The notes: generated by a model not told the origin, from the sequence alone. A stretch of 38,277 bases of DNA from Deltaproteobacteria bacterium (GCA_016202395.1 JACQOV010000070.1:1-38277), one strand, 5' to 3'. Positions 2,903 to 32,639 are shown, counted from the first letter of the stretch. Numbers and translations are program-made.

Positions 2903-3154
2903 ATGGATGTCACCACCGAAATTGAGAAACTCCTTCAATCCATGATTGAGCAACAGGAGAGAAAGGTCCTAGAACTGGCGCGGCGGATCTATCCGCAAGC
3001 CACCTCCGACGACATCTGGAGCCCGCAGGATGCGCCCGCACTACTTAACAACCCCACTTTTAATTACGAACAAGGAATCCTCACTGGATTCGTTGGTATT
3101 CAATCGGCCTATCGAGTCCTTCTCAAAAAACAGACCCAAAAAGTCAATTCTTGA
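2903..3154 (+). CDS. Small hypothetical protein (83 aa)
   Basis: ATG begins 2 bases after the lutC stop; helical, natural-looking sequence (IEQQERKVLELAR...FNYEQGIL) that fills the gap before rplU. Confidence 0.7.
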   Translation: MDVTTEIEKLLQSMIEQQERKVLELARRIYPQATSDDIWSPQDAPALLNNPTFNYEQGILTGFVGIQSAYRVLLKKQTQKVNS

Positions 3155-3211
3155 CGAGAGAAAACCATTATGTTACATACAATTGTTCTACTGGAGGGAA
3201 CTGGAGGAAAG

Positions 3212-3523
3212 ATGTACGCTGTCGTAAAAACAGGTGGAAAGCAGTTCAAGGTTTCAGAAAACGATCTTGTTCAGGTTGAACAGATCCCCGGCAATTCTGG
3301 CGACAAGGTGGAGCTTGCAGAGGTGTTACTCCTGGGTGAGGGGGAAGACGCGCAAATTGGAACCCCTCTCGTACAGGGAGCCAAGGTTCTAGCAGAGATC
3401 GTTCGGCAAGAGCGCGGGGAGAAGTTGATCGTGTTTAAAAAAAGGCGACGGAAGAAGTATCGCCGACAAACAGGACATCGACAAAACTTAACCTTGTTAA
3501 AAATTCACTCAATACAAGCTTGA
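3212..3523 (+). CDS. rplU: 50S ribosomal protein L21
   Basis: MYAVVKTGGKQFKV...GHRQ; SD GGAGG upstream. Confidence 0.97.
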   Translation: MYAVVKTGGKQFKVSENDLVQVEQIPGNSGDKVELAEVLLLGEGEDAQIGTPLVQGAKVLAEIVRQERGEKLIVFKKRRRKKYRRQTGHRQNLTLLKIHSIQA

Positions 3524-3538
3524 TAAGCTTGAAGGAGG

Positions 3539-3664
3539 ACAAACGCAAGAAATAATCGTTAGACGAGGCATCTCGACCGAGACCGAGTGAGGCGTACTTG
3601 GTTAGTACGCCGCAACGAGTGTCGAGGGAGAGTAACGAAGTATAACGTTATTTATTGCGTTTGT
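3539..3664. repeat. 126-nt long palindromic (MITE/REP-like) structured element
   Basis: Terminal arms 3539-3561 and 3643-3664 pair over 21 bp (1 mismatch, 1 bulge); inner stems CTCGAC/GTCGAG (3572-77/3621-26) and GGCGTACT/AGTACGCC (3591-98/3604-11). Confidence 0.8.
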
Positions 3665-3671
3665 AATAAAT

Positions 3672-3935
3672 ATGGCTCATAAGAAAGGACAAGGATCCAC
3701 CCGCAACGGACGCGACTCCGCAGGTCAACGACGCGGGGTAAAAACTTTTGGTGGGGAAAGAATAACGGCCGGAACTATCATTATTCGTCAACGAGGGACA
3801 CAAATCACCCCGGGACTGAATGTGGGGATCGGTCGAGATTGGACGCTTTACGCCAAATGTGATGGGATTGTGCAATTCCAATCGTACGGGGATGGGCGCT
3901 CCCGTGTCCACATCCAACCTGTTCAAACGCAATAA
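3672..3935 (+). CDS. rpmA: 50S ribosomal protein L27
   Basis: [16 protein letters not shown]...RQRGT. Confidence 0.97.
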
Positions 3936-3967
3936 ATGTCATTCTGATCTTAGGGTGCGTTCGCACT

Positions 3968-4972
3968 ATGAAATTTATTGATGAAGCCACCATCTCAGTC
4001 CAAGCCGGCGACGGAGGGCGCGGTTGCGTCAGTTTCCGCCGCGAAGCCCGCGTCCCGATGGGAGGACCCGACGGAGGGGATGGCGGCGACGGTGGAAGTG
4101 TTCTTCTCATCGCAGACCCACAACTCACCACCTTAATCGATCTCCAATACCGGCATCGCTACCCCGCAGAGCATGGAGAGCATGGACGAGGAAAAGATCA
4201 GTTTGGTCGCAAAGGACAAGACACCTTGATTCATCTCCCCATGGGGACGATGGTCTATGATGCTACAAATCAGGAGATCCTCTGCGATCTCAAAGAAGCG
4301 GGCCAACGATTCATCGCCGCTCAAGGGGGACGAGGCGGACATGGAAACAAACGGTTCGCTACTTCCACCAACCAGGCTCCACGAACCGCTCAGCCTGGAG
4401 AGAAAGGGGAAGCGCGCGATCTAAAGCTCACCCTCAAGCTCCTTGCCAACGTGGGGCTCGTCGGATTCCCCAATGCAGGAAAGTCCACTTTAATTTCGAA
4501 GATCTCTCGAGCTCGACCCAAGATTGCGGACTACCCTTTTACCACTTTGATTCCTCATTTAGGCACGGTAAAATATCATGATCAGAGCTTTGTGGTGGCC
4601 GACATTCCGGGACTCATCGAAGGGGCTCACAAGGGAATTGGATTGGGGGACCGATTCCTAAAACACATTGAGAGGACAGCCCTCCTGGTGTTCCTCATCG
4701 ATCTCTCCCCTTCCGCGGAGGCAAGCCCTTCCGATCAGTGGAAGATCTTAAAGAAGGAGCTCCAATCGTACGATATCTCTTTGACAAAAAAACACTCCTG
4801 GGTTGTGGGGAATAAAATCGACCTCCCGGAAGCGACGGCGCCATGGAGGTCCATCCAGAAGAAACTCGGCAAACAACGGACACTTGCGATTTCGGCCCTA
4901 ACAGGCGAAAATGTAGATTCTTTGGTGGCGGCCCTCGCTAAAGAGATAAAAGAGATGAGGAAAGAGGCGTAA
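3968..4972 (+). CDS. obgE: GTPase ObgE/CgtA
   Basis: Gly-rich Obg fold, GFPNAGKST, DYPFTT, DIPG and NKID motifs; lies after rpmA. Confidence 0.97.
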   Translation: MKFIDEATISVQAGDGGRGCVSFRREARVPMGGPDGGDGGDGGSVLLIADPQLTTLIDLQYRHRYPAEHGEHGRGKDQFGRKGQDTLIHLPMGTMVYDATNQEILCDLKEAGQRFIAAQGGRGGHGNKRFATSTNQAPRTAQPGEKGEARDLKLTLKLLANVGLVGFPNAGKSTLISKISRARPKIADYPFTTLIPHLGTVKYHDQSFVVADIPGLIEGAHKGIGLGDRFLKHIERTALLVFLIDLSPSAEASPSDQWKILKKELQSYDISLTKKHSWVVGNKIDLPEATAPWRSIQKKLGKQRTLAISALTGENVDSLVAALAKEIKEMRKEA

Positions 4973-22777: not shown

Positions 22778-22850
22778 TTTATTTTATCTTTTTGGCTTCG
22801 TCAGCGTGGAATTTGGCGTAGAGGGTTTGCCATTCGGCATTAGCGGGGCT
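22778..22850. repeat. 73-bp direct repeat, copy 1 (3' end of a DUF507 gene)
   Basis: Identical to 25892-25964. Confidence 0.95.
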
Positions 22851-22928
22851 CCAATGGGGACGGAAAGCGCGAATGCACTGGCGAACCGCTTGACTCATTC
22901 TGTGAATCTGTTCAGGACTTAATCGCAT
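22779..22928 (-). CDS. 49-aa chimeric DUF507 mini-gene (absent from the ORF track)
   Basis: Translates to MRLSPEQIHRMSQAVRQCIRAFRPHWSPANAEWQTLYAKFHADEAKKIK*; upstream TTGCGC-18-TAGAAT promoter-like motif. Confidence 0.65.
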   Translation of the reverse strand: MRLSPEQIHRMSQAVRQCIRAFRPHWSPANAEWQTLYAKFHADEAKKIK

Positions 22929-25891: not shown

Positions 25892-25964
25892 TTTATTTTA
25901 TCTTTTTGGCTTCGTCAGCGTGGAATTTGGCGTAGAGGGTTTGCCATTCGGCATTAGCGGGGCT
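25892..25964. repeat. 73-bp direct repeat, copy 2
   Basis: Identical to 22778-22850; encodes the C-terminus of the DUF507 gene at 25893-26165. Confidence 0.95.
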
Positions 25965-26165
25965 TAAATGAGGACGAAAAGCACGGATCCGTTGATGTAC
26001 GGCTTGATCAACCTTTTCTTCCCGTTCCAATTGTTCTGAAAGGACATTTCTAATCTGTTGTAGCACTACCTTCTCACTGGCCAGCAGCTCCGCCTCTTTG
26101 GACTGAGTGATTGCGCGCACAATCTTTTGTGAAAGATGAACAACCCTCTCTGGACTCATCGACAT
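25893..26165 (-). CDS. DUF507 family protein (second of tandem pair)
   Basis: MSMSPERVVHLSQKIV..EEKVDQAV..EWQTLYAK; helical paralog of the upstream gene. Confidence 0.75.
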   Translation of the reverse strand: MSMSPERVVHLSQKIVRAITQSKEAELLASEKVVLQQIRNVLSEQLEREEKVDQAVHQRIRAFRPHLSPANAEWQTLYAKFHADEAKKIK

Positions 26166-26476: not shown

Positions 26477-27066
26477 TTAAACAGTAACACCCTTTAAAAG
26501 GTCCCATCCTTTAGATAATACATATCTTAGCCAATATCCGGCTGTAAGAGAAGTGACAATTGCAATTAGCACAAGAACCGCAAAAAATGTTTCATTAATA
26601 ATACCAAGGTCAAATGCGACCGTGGCAAGGACAATGCCGGGTCCTCCTCTTGCATTCATGGTAAGACCCAGATTAAAACTTGAAAGCCAACTTTGATGTG
26701 CCAACTTGGCAGCGATCATTGTCCCAAGAGTCTTTACGGTCACCGCAAAAAGCAAGAAGATTAAAAAGAAAGATAGATCAAAATGATGAACCAAATCAAG
26801 TTTCAGACCGACCACCGCAAAATATATGGGAATAAAGAAGCCCAAACCGATTTCCTTTACATGTGTCTTCACACTCGCAATTTTTTCATTGGCAGTTGTG
26901 CCGACTACAATTCCGGCTAGAAATGCGCCGAAAATAATGTTTACATTTAAAAAGCTCGCAACCACAGCGAACAAAAAACACACAAACAACACATATCCAG
27001 TGGCAGAAGATTTTATCAGGAGATTGAGGCGCGATTTATTTACCCATTCAAAAAGCCTTGGCAATA
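26477..27066 (-). pseudogene. Cation:proton antiporter (CPA2/KefB-like), C-terminal fragment lacking its 5' half
   Basis: IFGAFLAG, FFIPIYFAVVGLKLD and MNARGGPGIV motifs; frame begins at the IS630 end. Confidence 0.85.
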
Positions 27067-27080
27067 CTAATACAAACGCG

Positions 27081-27616
27081 CTAAGTGATGTGACATAACC
27101 GTCTAATCTTTTGTGGAGACCATGAATGCGTCGTTGTCCGAACAGTTGTCCAAATAATATCCAGGCTTTCAAACCAGCGATTAGTGGTTGCCTCGTAGCG
27201 AACACGTCGCCAGATCCGCTCCTGGCAGTTCAGCCCCGGTTGATAGGGGGGCAGATAATTCAAGTAAAGCCTTCGATGGGTCTTCAAGAATTGGAGAACA
27301 GGCTCTCCCCGATGCCAACGGGCCCTGTCCACATACAAAAATATCCGATAACCTCGGAGCTTTTTGTAAAGAGATTTCAAGACTTCCAGGAATCCTTCCC
27401 GATTGCCTTCGGCTGTCCGGATAAAGCCATACCGACCCAAAAGCGGCGCTACCCATCCCGATACGTTGAGCCGCTTGGCGTGTTGGCTGGTCGTGGGGAT
27501 TCTCAAGCGAACCCCTTTCTTGGCCCAACCTCTGCCAAGCCTGGAATGAAGCGTGAAACCCGTCTCGTCTTGAAAGACAACAGTTTCACGAGGCCCCAGA
27601 TTTTGGAGTTTTTTTT
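27081..27616 (-). CDS. IS630 transposase OrfB (DDE domain), reached by a frameshift
   Basis: VVFQDETGF, YVDRARWH and LPPYQPGLNCQERIW motifs. Confidence 0.85.
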
Positions 27617-28119
27617 AAAACTCTCTGGAATTGGCGTGCCTGAGAGCTTTTGGCTTGGAGGTAAACATGGCCGGCCCGTTTCAGTTGGTAACCCAACTGG
27701 TGCATCCACATCTGGGCCTGACGGACTTTCAAAGAGATTCCGAAGCGCCGTTTTAAGTGAACCGCAAGCGTCGGTCCGTCCCACTGGATTCGCGGAAGGC
27801 CGAACTTGTTCGGAGATTGTTCCAGGTGCTCGGTTAGCTCCCAACGGACCTTTTCGGTCAAACGAGCCGGTCGTCCAGGACGAAGTTTAGGTTCCAGAGC
27901 TTTCAGGCCAGTTTCGTTGACGCCATGAATCCATCGGTTTAAGCTCATCCGATGTAACCCTAAAACCTCCGTTATCCATACAGGCCTTTGGCCCTCCAGG
28001 AAAAGCAGTAAGGCCGCAATCTTTATCCCGGTCCAAGCCCCCGGAATATGTTCCGCAAATGCTGCCAAGCGTTCCCGGGTGGCGTCGGGGTGCGACAACT
28101 CTAAGGTGGTGTGTCTCAT
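27586..28119 (-). CDS. IS630 transposase OrfA (HTH domains)
   Basis: RPGRPARL and WDGPTLAVHLKRRFGI motifs; A8 run at 27609-27616. Confidence 0.88.
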   Translation of the reverse strand: MRHTTLELSHPDATRERLAAFAEHIPGAWTGIKIAALLLFLEGQRPVWITEVLGLHRMSLNRWIHGVNETGLKALEPKLRPGRPARLTEKVRWELTEHLEQSPNKFGLPRIQWDGPTLAVHLKRRFGISLKVRQAQMWMHQLGYQLKRAGHVYLQAKSSQARQFQRVLKKTPKSGAS

Positions 28120-28142
28120 GAATACAAGGTATCATAACAGTA

Positions 28143-30266
28143 TCAATATGTCACTTCATTTAATGCGTTTGTATTAGTATAATCATCCCAAACTATTATT
28201 TGATCATAAACATCAGGGGAACTGTAAGACTGAGAAGAACGGGGCTGGCGAGCGATTTGAACCTCATCACCACCCGTGCTCAAATCATAAAGATAAACCG
28301 CGTCAAAACCGTCCCTTTTATCAACCCAAACGACATAGTTTCCATAGACGGCAGGGGGCTCTTGATCAAAATCGTCTGTTGTAATAGCGATGGAGCTTTC
28401 AGGATTTACTATGAGCGCGAAGCTATAATCCAACCACTCGGTATTATTAATAAGCACGTCGAGTTCTAATTCCACTTGATGAATATAGGGTGCGGAAGGG
28501 GAGATCTCTAAAATAATAGGTTCATCGGCAACAAAAACGTCTGGCTCTGTTTTAGTAAATGCAATGGGTTGCGTATTATTAACGCTTACATCGCGCCCGC
28601 TAGATGACACGGCTGTAGACAATCGATTAATGTATTCGATGCCCCGGGTATCGGCCAATAATATCAACGACAGTTCTATTATTTCGCCTCCTTCGGGAAT
28701 ATAATCTCCATCTCCAAAGTGCGTATCATCTATCGTATAAGAATGCGTAAATAATACTTGCGGCTTGATAAATTGTCTAAAATTGGAAACAGTGCTCACT
28801 GTGTTGTTTAACGTCTTCCAGTTCTCAGAGGGGCCTTGTGTCCCTTCCCAATCGTTCTCATCGACCCCCATATGATCGTAAAAGGTGAGACCGGAATCAA
28901 AGGTTACATGAGGATTGGACCATAAAGGTATTCGCTCACACAAGTCGTCACTAGAACAACCGGTATCCTTGGTAGTCTTAGCCATGATCGTTCTCCACTC
29001 AAAATCGGGGGTAACATAGCCATAACTATAAGGGAAAGGACCTTGTTCTGGTAAACCTGGCAGTTTCGCATGAGGAACCTCCTTCATATTTTGCTGATTT
29101 TGAGTGGGAACCTTTGATGCTATGTTTCCATGAAGATCATGCTTGATCTTCGAAGCCGCATCCGGATCTGCGTACCAGTCATGTCGAGCCCCCATATTAT
29201 GCCCCATTTCATGGGCAAAACTATAATTCCCCGTAGCACAATCTATAGTGACTACATTAAAAGCATAGGCCTCGAACTCACTCGAGACCTCCTCCATCAG
29301 ATAGGCCTGGCCACAAACTCCATCTCCAAGGTTGCTAACCCAAAGACTTACGATATCGGCACCATATTCATTCCGAACGGTATGGATTTCATCTAAAAAA
29401 CCGTCCGATGGATCCGCTAATCTTTCACGATCTGTTCCAGAACTCCCACTTTCTATGTAATCCACCTTCCCGGCATAAATGAGCCGAACTCGTTGTTGGA
29501 TTTGGCTGTCTTCATAGGATTGGTTCGTTTCATTAACAGTGAGTTCTATCTCGGACTCGATATCCCTCCATGCCGCATCAGCGGCATCTTGGGTATAGAA
29601 AACCACCACATCGATGATTGGTTCTTCTGCTTCTAAGATATAATTTGAAGGGCCAGCCGCCGAACTCCTAGCCCTCTTAAATTCCCCAGAGCTGATTTGG
29701 CAATTCTCATCGTCTGGATAAGCCTTCTGATTGATCTCTTTCACAACATGAAAGATATTATCTCCAATTTTATTTAAATTCTCATCACTCTTGACAGATC
29801 GAATCTGGAATAATTTTCCTCCCCGATTGATATTCGCTGTGATGCTCCTTTTTTCTTTGTTGATAACAAAGATGCCGTAGTTATACTGAGTTCCCTCAGC
29901 CCGCCCAATCCAGACACAATGAGTTGCAGAATCACATCTTTCTTGTTTCTTTATTAACTGTAGAGAAACGTCATCAAAAAGCCGCACCTCCATTAAATCA
30001 GGGCCTTTTAACTCTTTTCCTGGTTCCAGATTGAACAGATCCATTTTGGGGGTTACGAATCTAAAACGTTTCACTGCTGGGTCTTCACTTAATTTCTTTG
30101 CAAAAGGCTCAACGAGATTAGTAGGAACTTCGATGTTGTCGAACAATGGCCCTCTCTTCGAATTTTCTTGCAAAAGAAGACCAAAAGACAAAGCAACAGC
30201 GATGCAGGCTACAAACAAGACGGGCCTAATAAATTGGGGTTTCGCTTTCGATTTTGTTTTCACCAC
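28143..30266 (-). CDS. Membrane-anchored reprolysin-like (metzincin) zinc metalloprotease with beta-propeller repeats; C-terminally truncated by IS630 at ~28178
   Basis: HEMGHNMGARH zinc motif, RTIMA Met-turn, ADIVSL, PAVYGNYVVWVD and PDVYDQIIVWDD repeats; last residues are IS-derived. Confidence 0.85.
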   Translation of the reverse strand: MVKTKSKAKPQFIRPVLFVACIAVALSFGLLLQENSKRGPLFDNIEVPTNLVEPFAKKLSEDPAVKRFRFVTPKMDLFNLEPGKELKGPDLMEVRLFDDVSLQLIKKQERCDSATHCVWIGRAEGTQYNYGIFVINKEKRSITANINRGGKLFQIRSVKSDENLNKIGDNIFHVVKEINQKAYPDDENCQISSGEFKRARSSAAGPSNYILEAEEPIIDVVVFYTQDAADAAWRDIESEIELTVNETNQSYEDSQIQQRVRLIYAGKVDYIESGSSGTDRERLADPSDGFLDEIHTVRNEYGADIVSLWVSNLGDGVCGQAYLMEEVSSEFEAYAFNVVTIDCATGNYSFAHEMGHNMGARHDWYADPDAASKIKHDLHGNIASKVPTQNQQNMKEVPHAKLPGLPEQGPFPYSYGYVTPDFEWRTIMAKTTKDTGCSSDDLCERIPLWSNPHVTFDSGLTFYDHMGVDENDWEGTQGPSENWKTLNNTVSTVSNFRQFIKPQVLFTHSYTIDDTHFGDGDYIPEGGEIIELSLILLADTRGIEYINRLSTAVSSSGRDVSVNNTQPIAFTKTEPDVFVADEPIILEISPSAPYIHQVELELDVLINNTEWLDYSFALIVNPESSIAITTDDFDQEPPAVYGNYVVWVDKRDGFDAVYLYDLSTGGDEVQIARQPRSSQSYSSPDVYDQIIVWDDYTNTNALNEVTY

Positions 30267-30272
30267 GAATTC

Positions 30273-32639
30273 CTATTTGTTTCCCAGCAGAAGGGAAAAA
30301 TCATTGGATTCCCCATTGAGTGACAAGATATCTAAGGCTCCATCATGATTCACATCTCCTAAAATAATTCTCATTGGCTCTTTCCCAACATCGTAACGGA
30401 CAGGATCTTTAAATTCTCCTTCCCCTAATCCCAATAACACCGAAACGTCATTAGAACCCGCGTTGGTAGTTAGGATATCGAGCAAGCCGTCTCCGTTGAC
30501 ATCTCCTATGGCAACGTCGTCGGGATCATCCCCCACCTTAAACTCACGAGCCTGTCCAAAATCTCCATTAAAAAGAATGGAGACGCTATCGTCGGCCGGC
30601 TGGGTCATCACAATGTCCAAAAAATTGCCTCCATCCCCATCGAAGTCCCCAACTTCAATGGTCTCCAAAGGTTTTTCAGAGGAAACAATCATCGGAGAAT
30701 TGAAAAGATCGGTTGGGCTTCCAGTCCCCAATAAAATCGAAATATTGATGGAACCGCTATTCCCAGTTAAGATATCTAAAAAACTATCCTTGTTTACATC
30801 AACGAGTAAAATGGAAACCGGATTGACTCCCCCTTCTCCAATCGAGAAAAGAGAGGGAGATTCGAAGGTGAGATCTCCATTCCCTAAAAATACACTGACA
30901 TTATCGGAACGAAGATTTGTTGTGACGACATCTAAATTCCCATCTTTATCGATGTCCCCCAATGCTAGGCGATGATTATAATCCCCGCCGGTGGGATAAG
31001 AGTTTTTCATCTGAAAATTCCCTTTTCCATCTCCCTGGAAAAGGATAATCTCATCCGCGCCTAGATCGGAGGTGACCGCATCTAAATGGTGATCACTATT
31101 AAAATCTCCTAGAGCTACAAAAACGAGATCCAACTCATCAGTGATATACCGACCTGCTGCATTGAATTTGCTATTTACAGAATCCCAAAGGAATACTTCC
31201 ATCCCATCCCGAGAATATGAAGTAATGGCTACCACGTCCAAATCACCATCGTGATCTAAATCCCCTGTGGCAATGGACTCCGCATCTTCTCCAATAGAGT
31301 AGCGAGGACCTGCAATCGGCTGATTCTTACCCGAATTCTGATCATAGATTAAAGGGGTTATTTTATCTGCGGTGCTGTTAACTACCCCAAGATCAATATT
31401 TCCATTACTTTCAGTGCGCGAATCCAGATCCCCCGCAGCTACGGAAGTAATTCCTGCGCCTAGATCATAAATGGAAATAGGGGTGTGCCAAATGATGGAA
31501 CCCAGACTACCCAGGAGACGGGTTAAAGAGGAACTAAAGGAAACGTATCCGCCTGTAAACGCATCGAGAGCCCCATCTTTATCCTGATCAGCTAGAATGA
31601 TGAAATCAGCATATCCAGAAACAGACTGATCATAAACGCGCTGAAATGTCCCTGTGTTATTTCCACGAAGATTCGTTAAAGTTCTAGATCCTGAATTAGC
31701 CGTAACAATATCCAAATCCCCATCTTGTTCTAAATCCCCTAAGGCTACCGACGCAGGGCCATTATCAACGCCAAAGCGAGCCCCTCCAGGAAAAATTCCA
31801 TCCCCTTCATTTAAAAAGACGGAAATATCATTAGAAATTTTATTCGCAGTAACGATATCCAGAGAACCGTCATCGTTGAGATCCCCCAAAGCAATGGAAA
31901 CAGGAGTATCTCCAGTAATGTACGAAACCGCGGAATCAAACACTCCGGAACGGCTTATGAGAACAGAAACGGTATCGGAACTAGAGTCGGCGGTCACAAC
32001 ATCTACAAAGTCGTCTTCATTCAAATCCCCCAAAGCTATCGATAAAGGGGTTCCACCCACATTATAAGAACCTGAATTCGTAAAGCCTCCAAAGCTATCC
32101 CCCAGAAGTAGCGTGATATCATTAGAACCTTTGTTGGTAGTAACGATGTCTAGATTCCCATCTCGATTCATATCCTCTGTAGCCACTGCACTCGGCTCAC
32201 TTCCGGTAGCAAAAGTGGTTTGGGCTTCGAATCTTCCATCTCCGTTTCCCAACAAAATCGAAACATCATTAGAACCTTGATTAATCACTGCTGCATCAAG
32301 ATTCCCGTCTTTATTAAAATCATCAAAAATTGCCATCTTAGGAATAGAACCGGTCTCATAAGAACCTTTTGGAAAAGTTCCATTTCCAATTCCATTCAAG
32401 TCATCGCAGAAATCCCCTTTTCCATCAAAATCACGATCGATCTGACCCGCATTGGAGATAGTAGGGCAATTGTCCTTTGAATCTAAAAGGCCATCCCGAT
32501 CGGTATCCTTGAGGAAACGAACATCGTCGGGAACAACTTTATCTAACCAACTACGGAGATTTAAATCTTCCTTAAGAGTAATCCCAAAAGATAAAAGAAT
32601 AGCGATACTGGCGATAACAAATACAATCTGTCTCTTCAT
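30273..32639 (-). CDS. FG-GAP/VCBS repeat protein with a thrombospondin type-3 Ca-binding repeat
   Basis: DTDRDGLLDSKDNCP..DFDGKGDFCD, then many GD(L/F/V)NxDGxLDIVTxN..VSVLLG repeats; N-terminal hydrophobic segment. Confidence 0.9.
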   Translation of the reverse strand: MKRQIVFVIASIAILLSFGITLKEDLNLRSWLDKVVPDDVRFLKDTDRDGLLDSKDNCPTISNAGQIDRDFDGKGDFCDDLNGIGNGTFPKGSYETGSIPKMAIFDDFNKDGNLDAAVINQGSNDVSILLGNGDGRFEAQTTFATGSEPSAVATEDMNRDGNLDIVTTNKGSNDITLLLGDSFGGFTNSGSYNVGGTPLSIALGDLNEDDFVDVVTADSSSDTVSVLISRSGVFDSAVSYITGDTPVSIALGDLNDDGSLDIVTANKISNDISVFLNEGDGIFPGGARFGVDNGPASVALGDLEQDGDLDIVTANSGSRTLTNLRGNNTGTFQRVYDQSVSGYADFIILADQDKDGALDAFTGGYVSFSSSLTRLLGSLGSIIWHTPISIYDLGAGITSVAAGDLDSRTESNGNIDLGVVNSTADKITPLIYDQNSGKNQPIAGPRYSIGEDAESIATGDLDHDGDLDVVAITSYSRDGMEVFLWDSVNSKFNAAGRYITDELDLVFVALGDFNSDHHLDAVTSDLGADEIILFQGDGKGNFQMKNSYPTGGDYNHRLALGDIDKDGNLDVVTTNLRSDNVSVFLGNGDLTFESPSLFSIGEGGVNPVSILLVDVNKDSFLDILTGNSGSINISILLGTGSPTDLFNSPMIVSSEKPLETIEVGDFDGDGGNFLDIVMTQPADDSVSILFNGDFGQAREFKVGDDPDDVAIGDVNGDGLLDILTTNAGSNDVSVLLGLGEGEFKDPVRYDVGKEPMRIILGDVNHDGALDILSLNGESNDFSLLLGNK

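Follow-up and report, generated by a model that had tools for sequence, protein, structure and literature searches.

A MITE-like palindromic repeat between the Shine-Dalgarno sequence and the start codon of rpmA in a deltaproteobacterium, and a possible split ribosome-binding site

In a deltaproteobacterial genome, a 126-nt palindromic repeat stands between a strong Shine-Dalgarno (SD) sequence and the start codon of rpmA, the gene for ribosomal protein L27. We regard it as close to certain that this is a non-autonomous, MITE-like element related to an IS630-family insertion sequence (IS) and that it inserted into the 5-7-nt spacer between the rpmA SD and its ATG. As to how the gene is translated now, we tentatively favour a split ribosome-binding site (RBS), in which the folded element would set the old SD and the AUG at the feet of its helix and the 30S subunit would use both. 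The anatomy is solid and is unusual for a ribosomal-protein gene; the functional part we infer from the modelled structure. Positions are those of the window, the whole stretch of 38,277 nt that was analysed (JACQOV010000070.1:1-38277, assembly GCA_016202395.1).

The rplU-rpmA junction and its predicted fold

The spacer between rplU and rpmA is 148 nt long, and within it the SD, the element, the short AATAAAT segment and the rpmA ATG follow one another in just the order and at just the positions given in a preliminary description of this sequence (Table 1). Downstream of obg lie proB and proA, which were assigned by position and by reading of their translations, not by a Pfam scan. The linear distance from G3538 to A3672 is outside the SD working range of the genome, and GAAGGAGG reaches no downstream start codon except across the hairpin. 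A search for SD-like motifs (GGAG, GAGG, AGGA, GGGA, AGGG, GGGG, AAGG) was negative at -20 to -4 of the rpmA ATG, bearing out the earlier statement that no SD lies near it.

Table 1. Features of the rplU-rpmA-obg region and the related insertion sequence, in window coordinates
Feature	Position	Strand	Basis or remark
rplU (ribosomal protein L21)	3212..3523	+	Pfam Ribosomal_L21p, E 2.1e-38; stop TGA 3521-3523
Small 7-bp hairpin around the rplU stop codon	3515..3531	+	MFE structures
Shine-Dalgarno GAAGGAGG, presumed original rpmA SD	3531..3538	+	sequence; 133 nt from ATG
126-nt MITE-like palindromic repeat (family A copy), one long imperfect hairpin	3539..3664	.	fold and repeat search
Spacer AATAAAT, hairpin foot to ATG	3665..3671	+	sequence
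rpmA (ribosomal protein L27)	3672..3935	+	Pfam Ribosomal_L27, E 4.9e-34, match from residue 2
obg GTPase, next gene of the operon	3968..4972	+	Pfam GTP1_OBG, E 2.4e-61
IS630-family insertion sequence	27065..28182	-	HTH and DDE_3 ORFs, inverted ends

The start of rpmA is fixed by the Pfam match, which begins at residue 2, together with the stops that the rpmA frame contains upstream of the ATG (at 3588, 3603 and 3633) and the absence of any ATG, GTG or TTG past the last of them. The same stops and missing start codon exclude an N-terminal extension of L27 or read-through from inside the element. The N-terminus is canonical (MAHKKG), the gene is intact, and a single match to L27 was obtained in the assembly, which is 89% complete. 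The element itself contains no ORF of at least 40 aa on the plus strand.

The stretch 3525-3680 folds at -57.4 kcal/mol, against -34.4 +/- 3.5 kcal/mol for shuffled sequences (z -6.54; none of 200 shuffles as good), and the 126-nt hairpin alone at about -52 kcal/mol. This fold recovers the 21-bp basal stem with nested inner stems that had been reported earlier; the basal stem consists of 10 bp, a 1x1 mismatch, 6 bp, a 1-nt bulge and 5 bp. In four folded contexts of 200 to 724 nt the basal pairs have probabilities of 0.85-1.0, with 0.85-0.87 for the closing pair 3539-3664 and 0.998-1.0 for the next pairs, which in this prediction leaves 7 nt to the AUG. The AUG region (3665-3674) has a probability of being unpaired of 0.81-0.89 in all four contexts, and the SD a mean of 0.42, the GAG of the SD being covered by weak outer pairs (3508-3510/3535-3537) of a small hairpin. 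The minus strand folds almost equally well (-49.6 kcal/mol, z -6.74). A scan of positions 3100-4000 with Rfam 15 gave three matches at E<=10, all far below their gathering scores and none overlapping 3531-3674. An intrinsic terminator at the element was rejected, as a terminator-like site is absent there.

That the organism uses SD sequences follows from the distribution of GGAG and GAGG, which peak at -14 to -9 before ORF starts (73-122 per position, compared with about 12-21 at -25 to -18), and from an SD frequency over background: 569 of 1567 longest-ORF starts carry one (36%; 59% when starts up to codon 40 are all considered), the background being 14%. With the hairpin folded out, GGAG of rpmA lies at -12 and GAGG at -11. 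The 7-nt SD-ATG spacing which the preliminary description had obtained by removing the element is thus restored, and it falls on the genome's own SD peak. No 16S gene from which the anti-SD could be read was found in the assembly.

The junctions are also present in separately built contigs. In three further runs of one study, the left junction is bridged by contigs X2 3192-3612 and X4 3407-3589 and the right one by X3 3600-4100, with no difference across all the bridging contigs; the assembly is therefore right at rpmA and the filled allele is present. In the contigs of four runs we saw no contig that joins the sequence across the element and no empty allele of the same species, the uncovered parts being uninformative in this respect.

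Empty junctions were found in distant relatives. A search with the pattern of the element ends located the family at 9 loci of 7 other metagenome-assembled genomes (MAGs) of Deltaproteobacteria or Thermodesulfobacteriota, several of them apparently from groundwater. L27 was found in six of these seven, and in all six the rplU-rpmA junction, 10-76 nt long, is free of any insert and carries an SD-like run 2-5 nt upstream of the rpmA ATG, so the search for empty sites proposed in the preliminary description had a positive outcome. Since these MAGs are distant (their L27 proteins are 57-72% identical), their junctions represent the ancestral layout, not a recent empty allele. A near-identical empty site was not found in a metagenome scan with L21, in which identity reached 58% at most. 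When the whole element was compared by BLAST with five of the element-bearing MAGs, copies were obtained in one only (G032); the other four have the ends and the architecture in common, with a diverged core.

The repeat family and an IS630-family relative

The genome searched comprises 1.9 Mb in 108 contigs (G000). A search with the family profile (nhmmer) gave 44 hits, among them 21 full-length copies, one interrupted copy and two partial copies at contig ends. Since copies with these ends recur at other places in the genome, the hairpin at rpmA is not a chance palindrome. The outermost pair of the family, which we call family A, is A...T in 12 copies and G...C in 9, and is mismatched in none of the 21; because this pair covaries without mismatch, the boundaries of the rpmA copy were set at 3539 and 3664. 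The rpmA copy has the lowest score against the family profile and shows three private double changes from G-C to A-U.

About 15 of the 44 hits are restricted to the central 77-90 nt. They belong with a second repeat family whose core is approximately 90% identical to that of family A and whose termini are unrelated, found at C71:3448-3536, C80:6339-6430, C93:34642-34731, C63:8336-8424, C104:7477-7574 and some ten more loci of this genome. Two kinds of ends thus enclose one conserved core, and the core of the rpmA copy is nearer to the second family than to most copies of family A. The interrupted family A copy lies at C95:42560-42749 and has about 60 nt inserted into its 3' half. Many copies in contigs C71, C69, C76 and C78, and at L078, L082, L083, L085 and L086 in the element-bearing MAGs, have some 20 extra bases in common; this A/T-rich stretch ends in ...CAT[CT]... 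and occurs on the left side only. The full element may accordingly be asymmetric and longer than the hairpin.

The window itself contains a likely source of transposase for the repeat, an IS with perfect inverted ends of 15 nt and two minus-strand ORFs. One ORF (27586-28119) matches HTH_32, HTH_29 and HTH_33, and the other (27081-27506) matches DDE_3 from profile position 31 onwards; HTH plus DDE_3 is the make-up of IS630-family transposases, and the IS was assigned to that family on this ground. The two-ORF layout reflects either a frameshifted transposase or a programmed two-ORF one. Further copies or ends of the IS occur at the contig ends of C55, C31 and C9. The right arm of the element is identical to the right end of the IS at 20 of 24 positions; the left arm matches the reverse complement of that same right end at 13 of 15 positions, and the left end of the IS over only 8 of 8. 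The AATA at 3665-3668, to which the right-arm alignment extends, is similar to ATTA, the outermost bases of the IS end, and could be derived from the element or contain the target TA.

We call the repeat MITE-like and IS630-related because it is small and without transposase, is present in many copies, has ends matching those of the IS, and is present or absent at orthologous sites. These are four of five features by which a MITE is recognized. The fifth concerns the target: IS630 insertions are expected to duplicate a TA, and here TA occurs at +3/+4 past the right end in 10 of 21 copies and directly to the left in only 2 of 21, while the rpmA copy has no flanking direct repeat. The preliminary description had spoken of a MITE/REP-like element. 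Its MITE half is well founded, given the 21 full-length copies that the copy-number search returned, the match to the IS ends and the empty orthologous junctions. Its REP half is not: REP/BIME sequences are short (about 20-40 nt), G+C-rich imperfect palindromes, and this identity was rejected for an element of 126 nt with A/T-rich, IS-like ends.

Pairing is maintained across the family. In the 21 copies, 98.0% of 903 cells are standard pairs, and 21 of 43 pairs show changes on both sides, against a mean of 10.4 in shuffles (none of 500 reaches 21) and 0-4 in slid controls. The covariation analysis suggested in the preliminary description therefore yielded a strong signal of pairing but none specific to RNA: in the mRNA sense there are 12 G.U and 8 A.C combinations, which is no excess of G.U, and the pairing is strictly Watson-Crick and symmetric between strands. 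For this reason the covariation was dropped as a proof of RNA function and is not counted as evidence for a split RBS. Upkeep of the quasipalindrome at the DNA level, or selection for transposition, explains it as well as an RNA role does; template switching is described as correcting quasipalindromes in DNA (PMC7202029). The sequences of the asymmetric internal loops are conserved even across genomes, while the helices covary. With respect to transcription, 9 of the 21 copies lie in the same sense and 10 in the opposite one, 2 being unassigned.

In 10 of 21 copies, by crude ORFs, the end of the upstream ORF is at most 3 nt away or overlaps the element, which then lies between cistrons; in many other copies a stop codon is 0-3 nt from the element end. 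At C24:11971-12094 and C19:8470-8590 the upstream ORF enters the element for 12-13 nt and stops at a TAA inside it. From a reading of the flanks, at least 8 copies are followed by a normal SD and ATG, and in two or three the next start has no SD on either side. Among the copies, a strong SD before the element with none after it was seen at rpmA only. Three copies (C81:5831-5952, C76:13272-13388 and C96:29169-29290) adjoin what looks by eye like tRNA-gene sequence.

Readings of initiation at rpmA

In the split-RBS reading that we tentatively favour, the 126-nt insert in the rplU-rpmA-obg transcript would zip into a very stable hairpin. With 3539 paired to 3664, a single helix would have GAAGGAGG at one foot and AAUAAAU-AUG at the other. 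The 30S subunit would keep hold of the old SD and meet the AUG at a distance of about 7 nt and the width of a helix. Ribosomes that end at the rplU stop, 8 nt upstream of the SD, would probably open the small hairpin that half covers it, and this opening would couple the synthesis of L27 to that of L21. From this model we infer that initiation at rpmA continues to use the upstream SD and is coupled to rplU translation, and it is plausible that the element is tolerated because it folds out.

Several observations speak for such a use of the SD. The genome employs SD sequences, and the folded-out motif falls on its peak; the basal helix is predicted with high probability and leaves the AUG region mostly unpaired; and the site belongs to the sole L27 gene found, which is intact and whose filled allele recurs unchanged in contigs of the three further runs. 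When a strict filter for an SD-hairpin-AUG arrangement was applied, rpmA passed it and no ORF of at least 80 aa did in a crude set of 1806 ORFs, from which rpmA is absent (an antisense ORF was chosen there) and for which it was scored separately. A looser genome scan for such sites gave 345 hits, mostly wrong starts and weak folds, and was discarded. Hairpins that bridge an SD and an AUG in phage T4 (PMC3014915), and ribosome binding around a hairpin in thrS of Escherichia coli (PMC3936740), provide precedents, which are compared with rpmA below.

A parallel that arose outside this repeat family points in the same direction. We surveyed 62 loci that carry both rplU and rpmA, 26 of them from unrelated genomes, 6 from the element-bearing MAGs and 30 from metagenome contigs. 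Most have a proximal SD at rpmA. At two of them, L061:1798-1907 and L063:1798-1909, which belong to an unrelated metagenomic lineage, an SD is followed by a hairpin and then by the rpmA ATG. There the rplU stop codon overlaps or abuts AGGAGG or GAGGAGG, and one or two bases after the SD begins a hairpin of about 90 nt with a perfect stem of 24-27 bp, unrelated to the rpmA repeat; a 9-nt spacer leads from it to the ATG, with no proximal SD. The two loci are 87% identical over 546 nt, and their stems differ by one compensatory pair. This layout has thus survived divergence at the level of species, which speaks for the arrangement being workable.

On the other side, the hairpin exceeds the T4 examples in length by a factor of about 8, and the SD is partly paired in the predicted ensemble. 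The survival of an 8-nt SD is weak evidence of its use, and the relatives with empty sites are distant. Moreover, roughly 41-64% of genes here are without an SD by a crude count, and the basal duplex of 21 bp in a genome with an RNase III gene makes cleavage between SD and AUG plausible. These last two points lead to the alternatives that follow.

The alternative that we hold unlikely, though far from negligible, takes the old SD for a relic. Initiation at rpmA would then be SD-independent, by S1-type or standby binding to the open A/U-rich UAAUAAAUAUG past the hairpin, possibly slower and at a rate that the cell tolerates. The open AUG region and the many SD-less ORFs of this genome agree with it, and so does the family copy at C17:3291-3414, between which and the ychF ATG there are only 8 nt and which has an SD-like motif on neither side; the gene behind C19:8470 is likewise SD-less. 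The ychF copy counts against the split RBS as well, as it indicates that SD-less initiation just behind this hairpin is evidently possible. Against the relic stand the proximal rpmA SD in all six element-bearing relatives that could be compared and in most of the 62 loci, the full GAAGGAGG placed exactly at the foot of the helix, and the retention at L061 and L063 of a strong SD at the 5' hairpin foot across 13% divergence.

A stronger form of the split RBS is conceivable, in which the folded element would be an obligatory architectural part of the rpmA initiation site, a selected design that arose independently at L061/L063; we think this rather doubtful. Were it so, bacteria would have here their counterpart of shunting over a stable stem, and the output of L27 and Obg would depend on an intact hairpin and hence on RNase III, temperature and helicases.

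It is also improbable, in our estimate, that RNase III cuts the basal duplex and that L27 synthesis relies on a processed mRNA whose short leader has no SD. Such cleavage would part the rplU mRNA from the rpmA-obg mRNA, and might coexist with either the split RBS or SD-independent initiation. The duplex, with its single mismatch and single bulge, would be a suitable substrate, a gene with an RNase III domain is present (G000:C13:3131-3514, 129.6 bits), and the frequent placement of copies between cistrons, within 3 nt of an upstream ORF end or overlapping it, fits as well; Correia elements are described as binding RNase III and being cleaved or protected by it (PMC2649163, PMC10969869). However, cleavage would strip a ribosomal-protein gene of its SD, the copies have no orientation bias with respect to transcription, and the G.U and A.C counts give no sign of selection on the RNA strand.

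Transcription starting inside the element is a further alternative, and a highly improbable one. A hybrid promoter would combine a -35 TTGAAG in the flank (3529-3534) with a -10 AATAAT in the left arm (3551-3556), and neither the SD nor the 5' half of the basal stem would be part of the resulting rpmA-obg transcript. The site is the one sigma-70-like match on the plus strand (9 of 12 positions, 3529-3556), and Correia elements are described as able to create promoters at their ends (PMC2649163). The match is weak, though: shuffles give 0.8 +/- 0.9 such matches and the region three, of which two are on the minus strand, and the sigma-70-like consensus used may not be the organism's own. It is also at odds with the usual state of these genes, since rplU and rpmA are normally co-transcribed. 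The SD-independent, RNase III and hybrid-promoter alternatives are not mutually exclusive.

That the repeat was misplaced in assembly, or that rpmA is a dying, unexpressed gene, is hardly credible: repeats often break or misjoin assemblies of this kind (108 contigs, 89% complete), but here both junctions recur without a difference in contigs built separately from three other runs, and the gene is intact, canonical at its N-terminus and the only L27 gene found. For RNA-level excision, a 'stealth' mobile RNA and a regulatory switch, all of which the preliminary description had offered, there is no evidence.

Comparison with known systems, and further repeats

The phage T4 genes 25 and 38, cited as a precedent in the preliminary description, are a real one, with hairpins far smaller than that at rpmA. 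In gene 38 a hairpin shortens the SD-AUG distance from 22 to 5 nt and in gene 25 from 27 to 11 nt, and the role of the split RBS was shown by mutation, reporters and DMS probing, as described in PMC3014915. As in T4, SD and AUG of rpmA are too far apart in the linear sequence and a hairpin intervenes, here with a predicted change from 133 nt to 7 nt plus the helix end. Unlike the short T4 hairpins, which are not mobile repeats, this predicted one has 126 nt, originates from a transposable repeat and lies in a cellular ribosomal-protein operon. In E. coli thrS the ribosome binds single-stranded segments that flank a stable hairpin and does not unfold it (Sacerdot et al., 1998; PMC3936740). That hairpin, unlike the one at rpmA, precedes the SD: it separates a standby or enhancer segment from the SD and AUG, and it is a regulatory operator, not a repeat.

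Among mobile elements, the Correia elements of Neisseria (CREE/NEMIS) are the closest in build: they are described as MITE-like, about 100-150 bp long, with inverted ends and a conserved core, and as lying inside operons, where they are co-transcribed, fold into hairpins and affect neighbouring genes (PMC2649163, PMC10969869). The rpmA element is likewise MITE-like, with inverted ends around a conserved core and a predicted hairpin within an operon, its ends are predicted to pair in a duplex of about two turns (21 bp), and its host encodes RNase III. The likeness that we can point to is one of architecture. IHF binding and promoter activity are further traits of the Correia elements; as to the latter, the rpmA copy offers only one weak promoter-like match (3529-3556). 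No Correia insertion is known to separate an SD from its start codon.

IS630-derived bacterial MITEs, such as Nezha of cyanobacteria, are short, palindromic, non-autonomous and multi-copy, with ends matching an IS630 element of the same genome. Compared with these, the present family is peculiar in that both of its arms resemble the right end of the IS and in that a second family has the same core with other termini.

Rickettsia palindromic elements are described as being tolerated in unusual places, including in frame inside genes (PMC10969869). A similar case is the copy at C17:16000-16123, just after an SD and ATG and in frame at the 5' end of a 217-aa ORF (124 nt plus 2 makes 126); it may be a 42-residue N-terminal insertion of the Rickettsia kind, or the real start may lie further downstream. 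The rpmA copy, in contrast, is untranslated, as the stops in the rpmA frame attest.

In the literature outside subscription journals we found no MITE described as separating an SD from the start codon, and in a 2024 review of the functions of prokaryotic MITEs the strings 'Shine' and 'ribosom' occur 0 times. MITEs in operons and split RBSs are each known; their combination at rpmA appears to be new. If the upstream SD works, no other natural insert known to be tolerated between these two signals would come near this one in length. The limit of what the 30S platform can accommodate would have to be drawn anew, and this in a ribosomal-protein gene. The rpmA site offers a natural test case for models of initiation on structured mRNAs, and it shows one way for a MITE to enter an essential signal while the gene survives. 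For the prediction of start sites and RBSs the site is also a warning, as rpmA would here be scored as SD-less. The case of L061 and L063 suggests that sites of this type can be found by systematic search.

Two other sets of repeats were observed in the window. Positions 30400-32300 contain periodic direct repeats with spacings of 147, 291 and 297 nt and 60-75% identity, which probably belong to a repeat-domain protein. A 116-nt direct repeat occurs at 22778-22893 and 25892-26007, the two copies being 89% identical and 3.1 kb apart.
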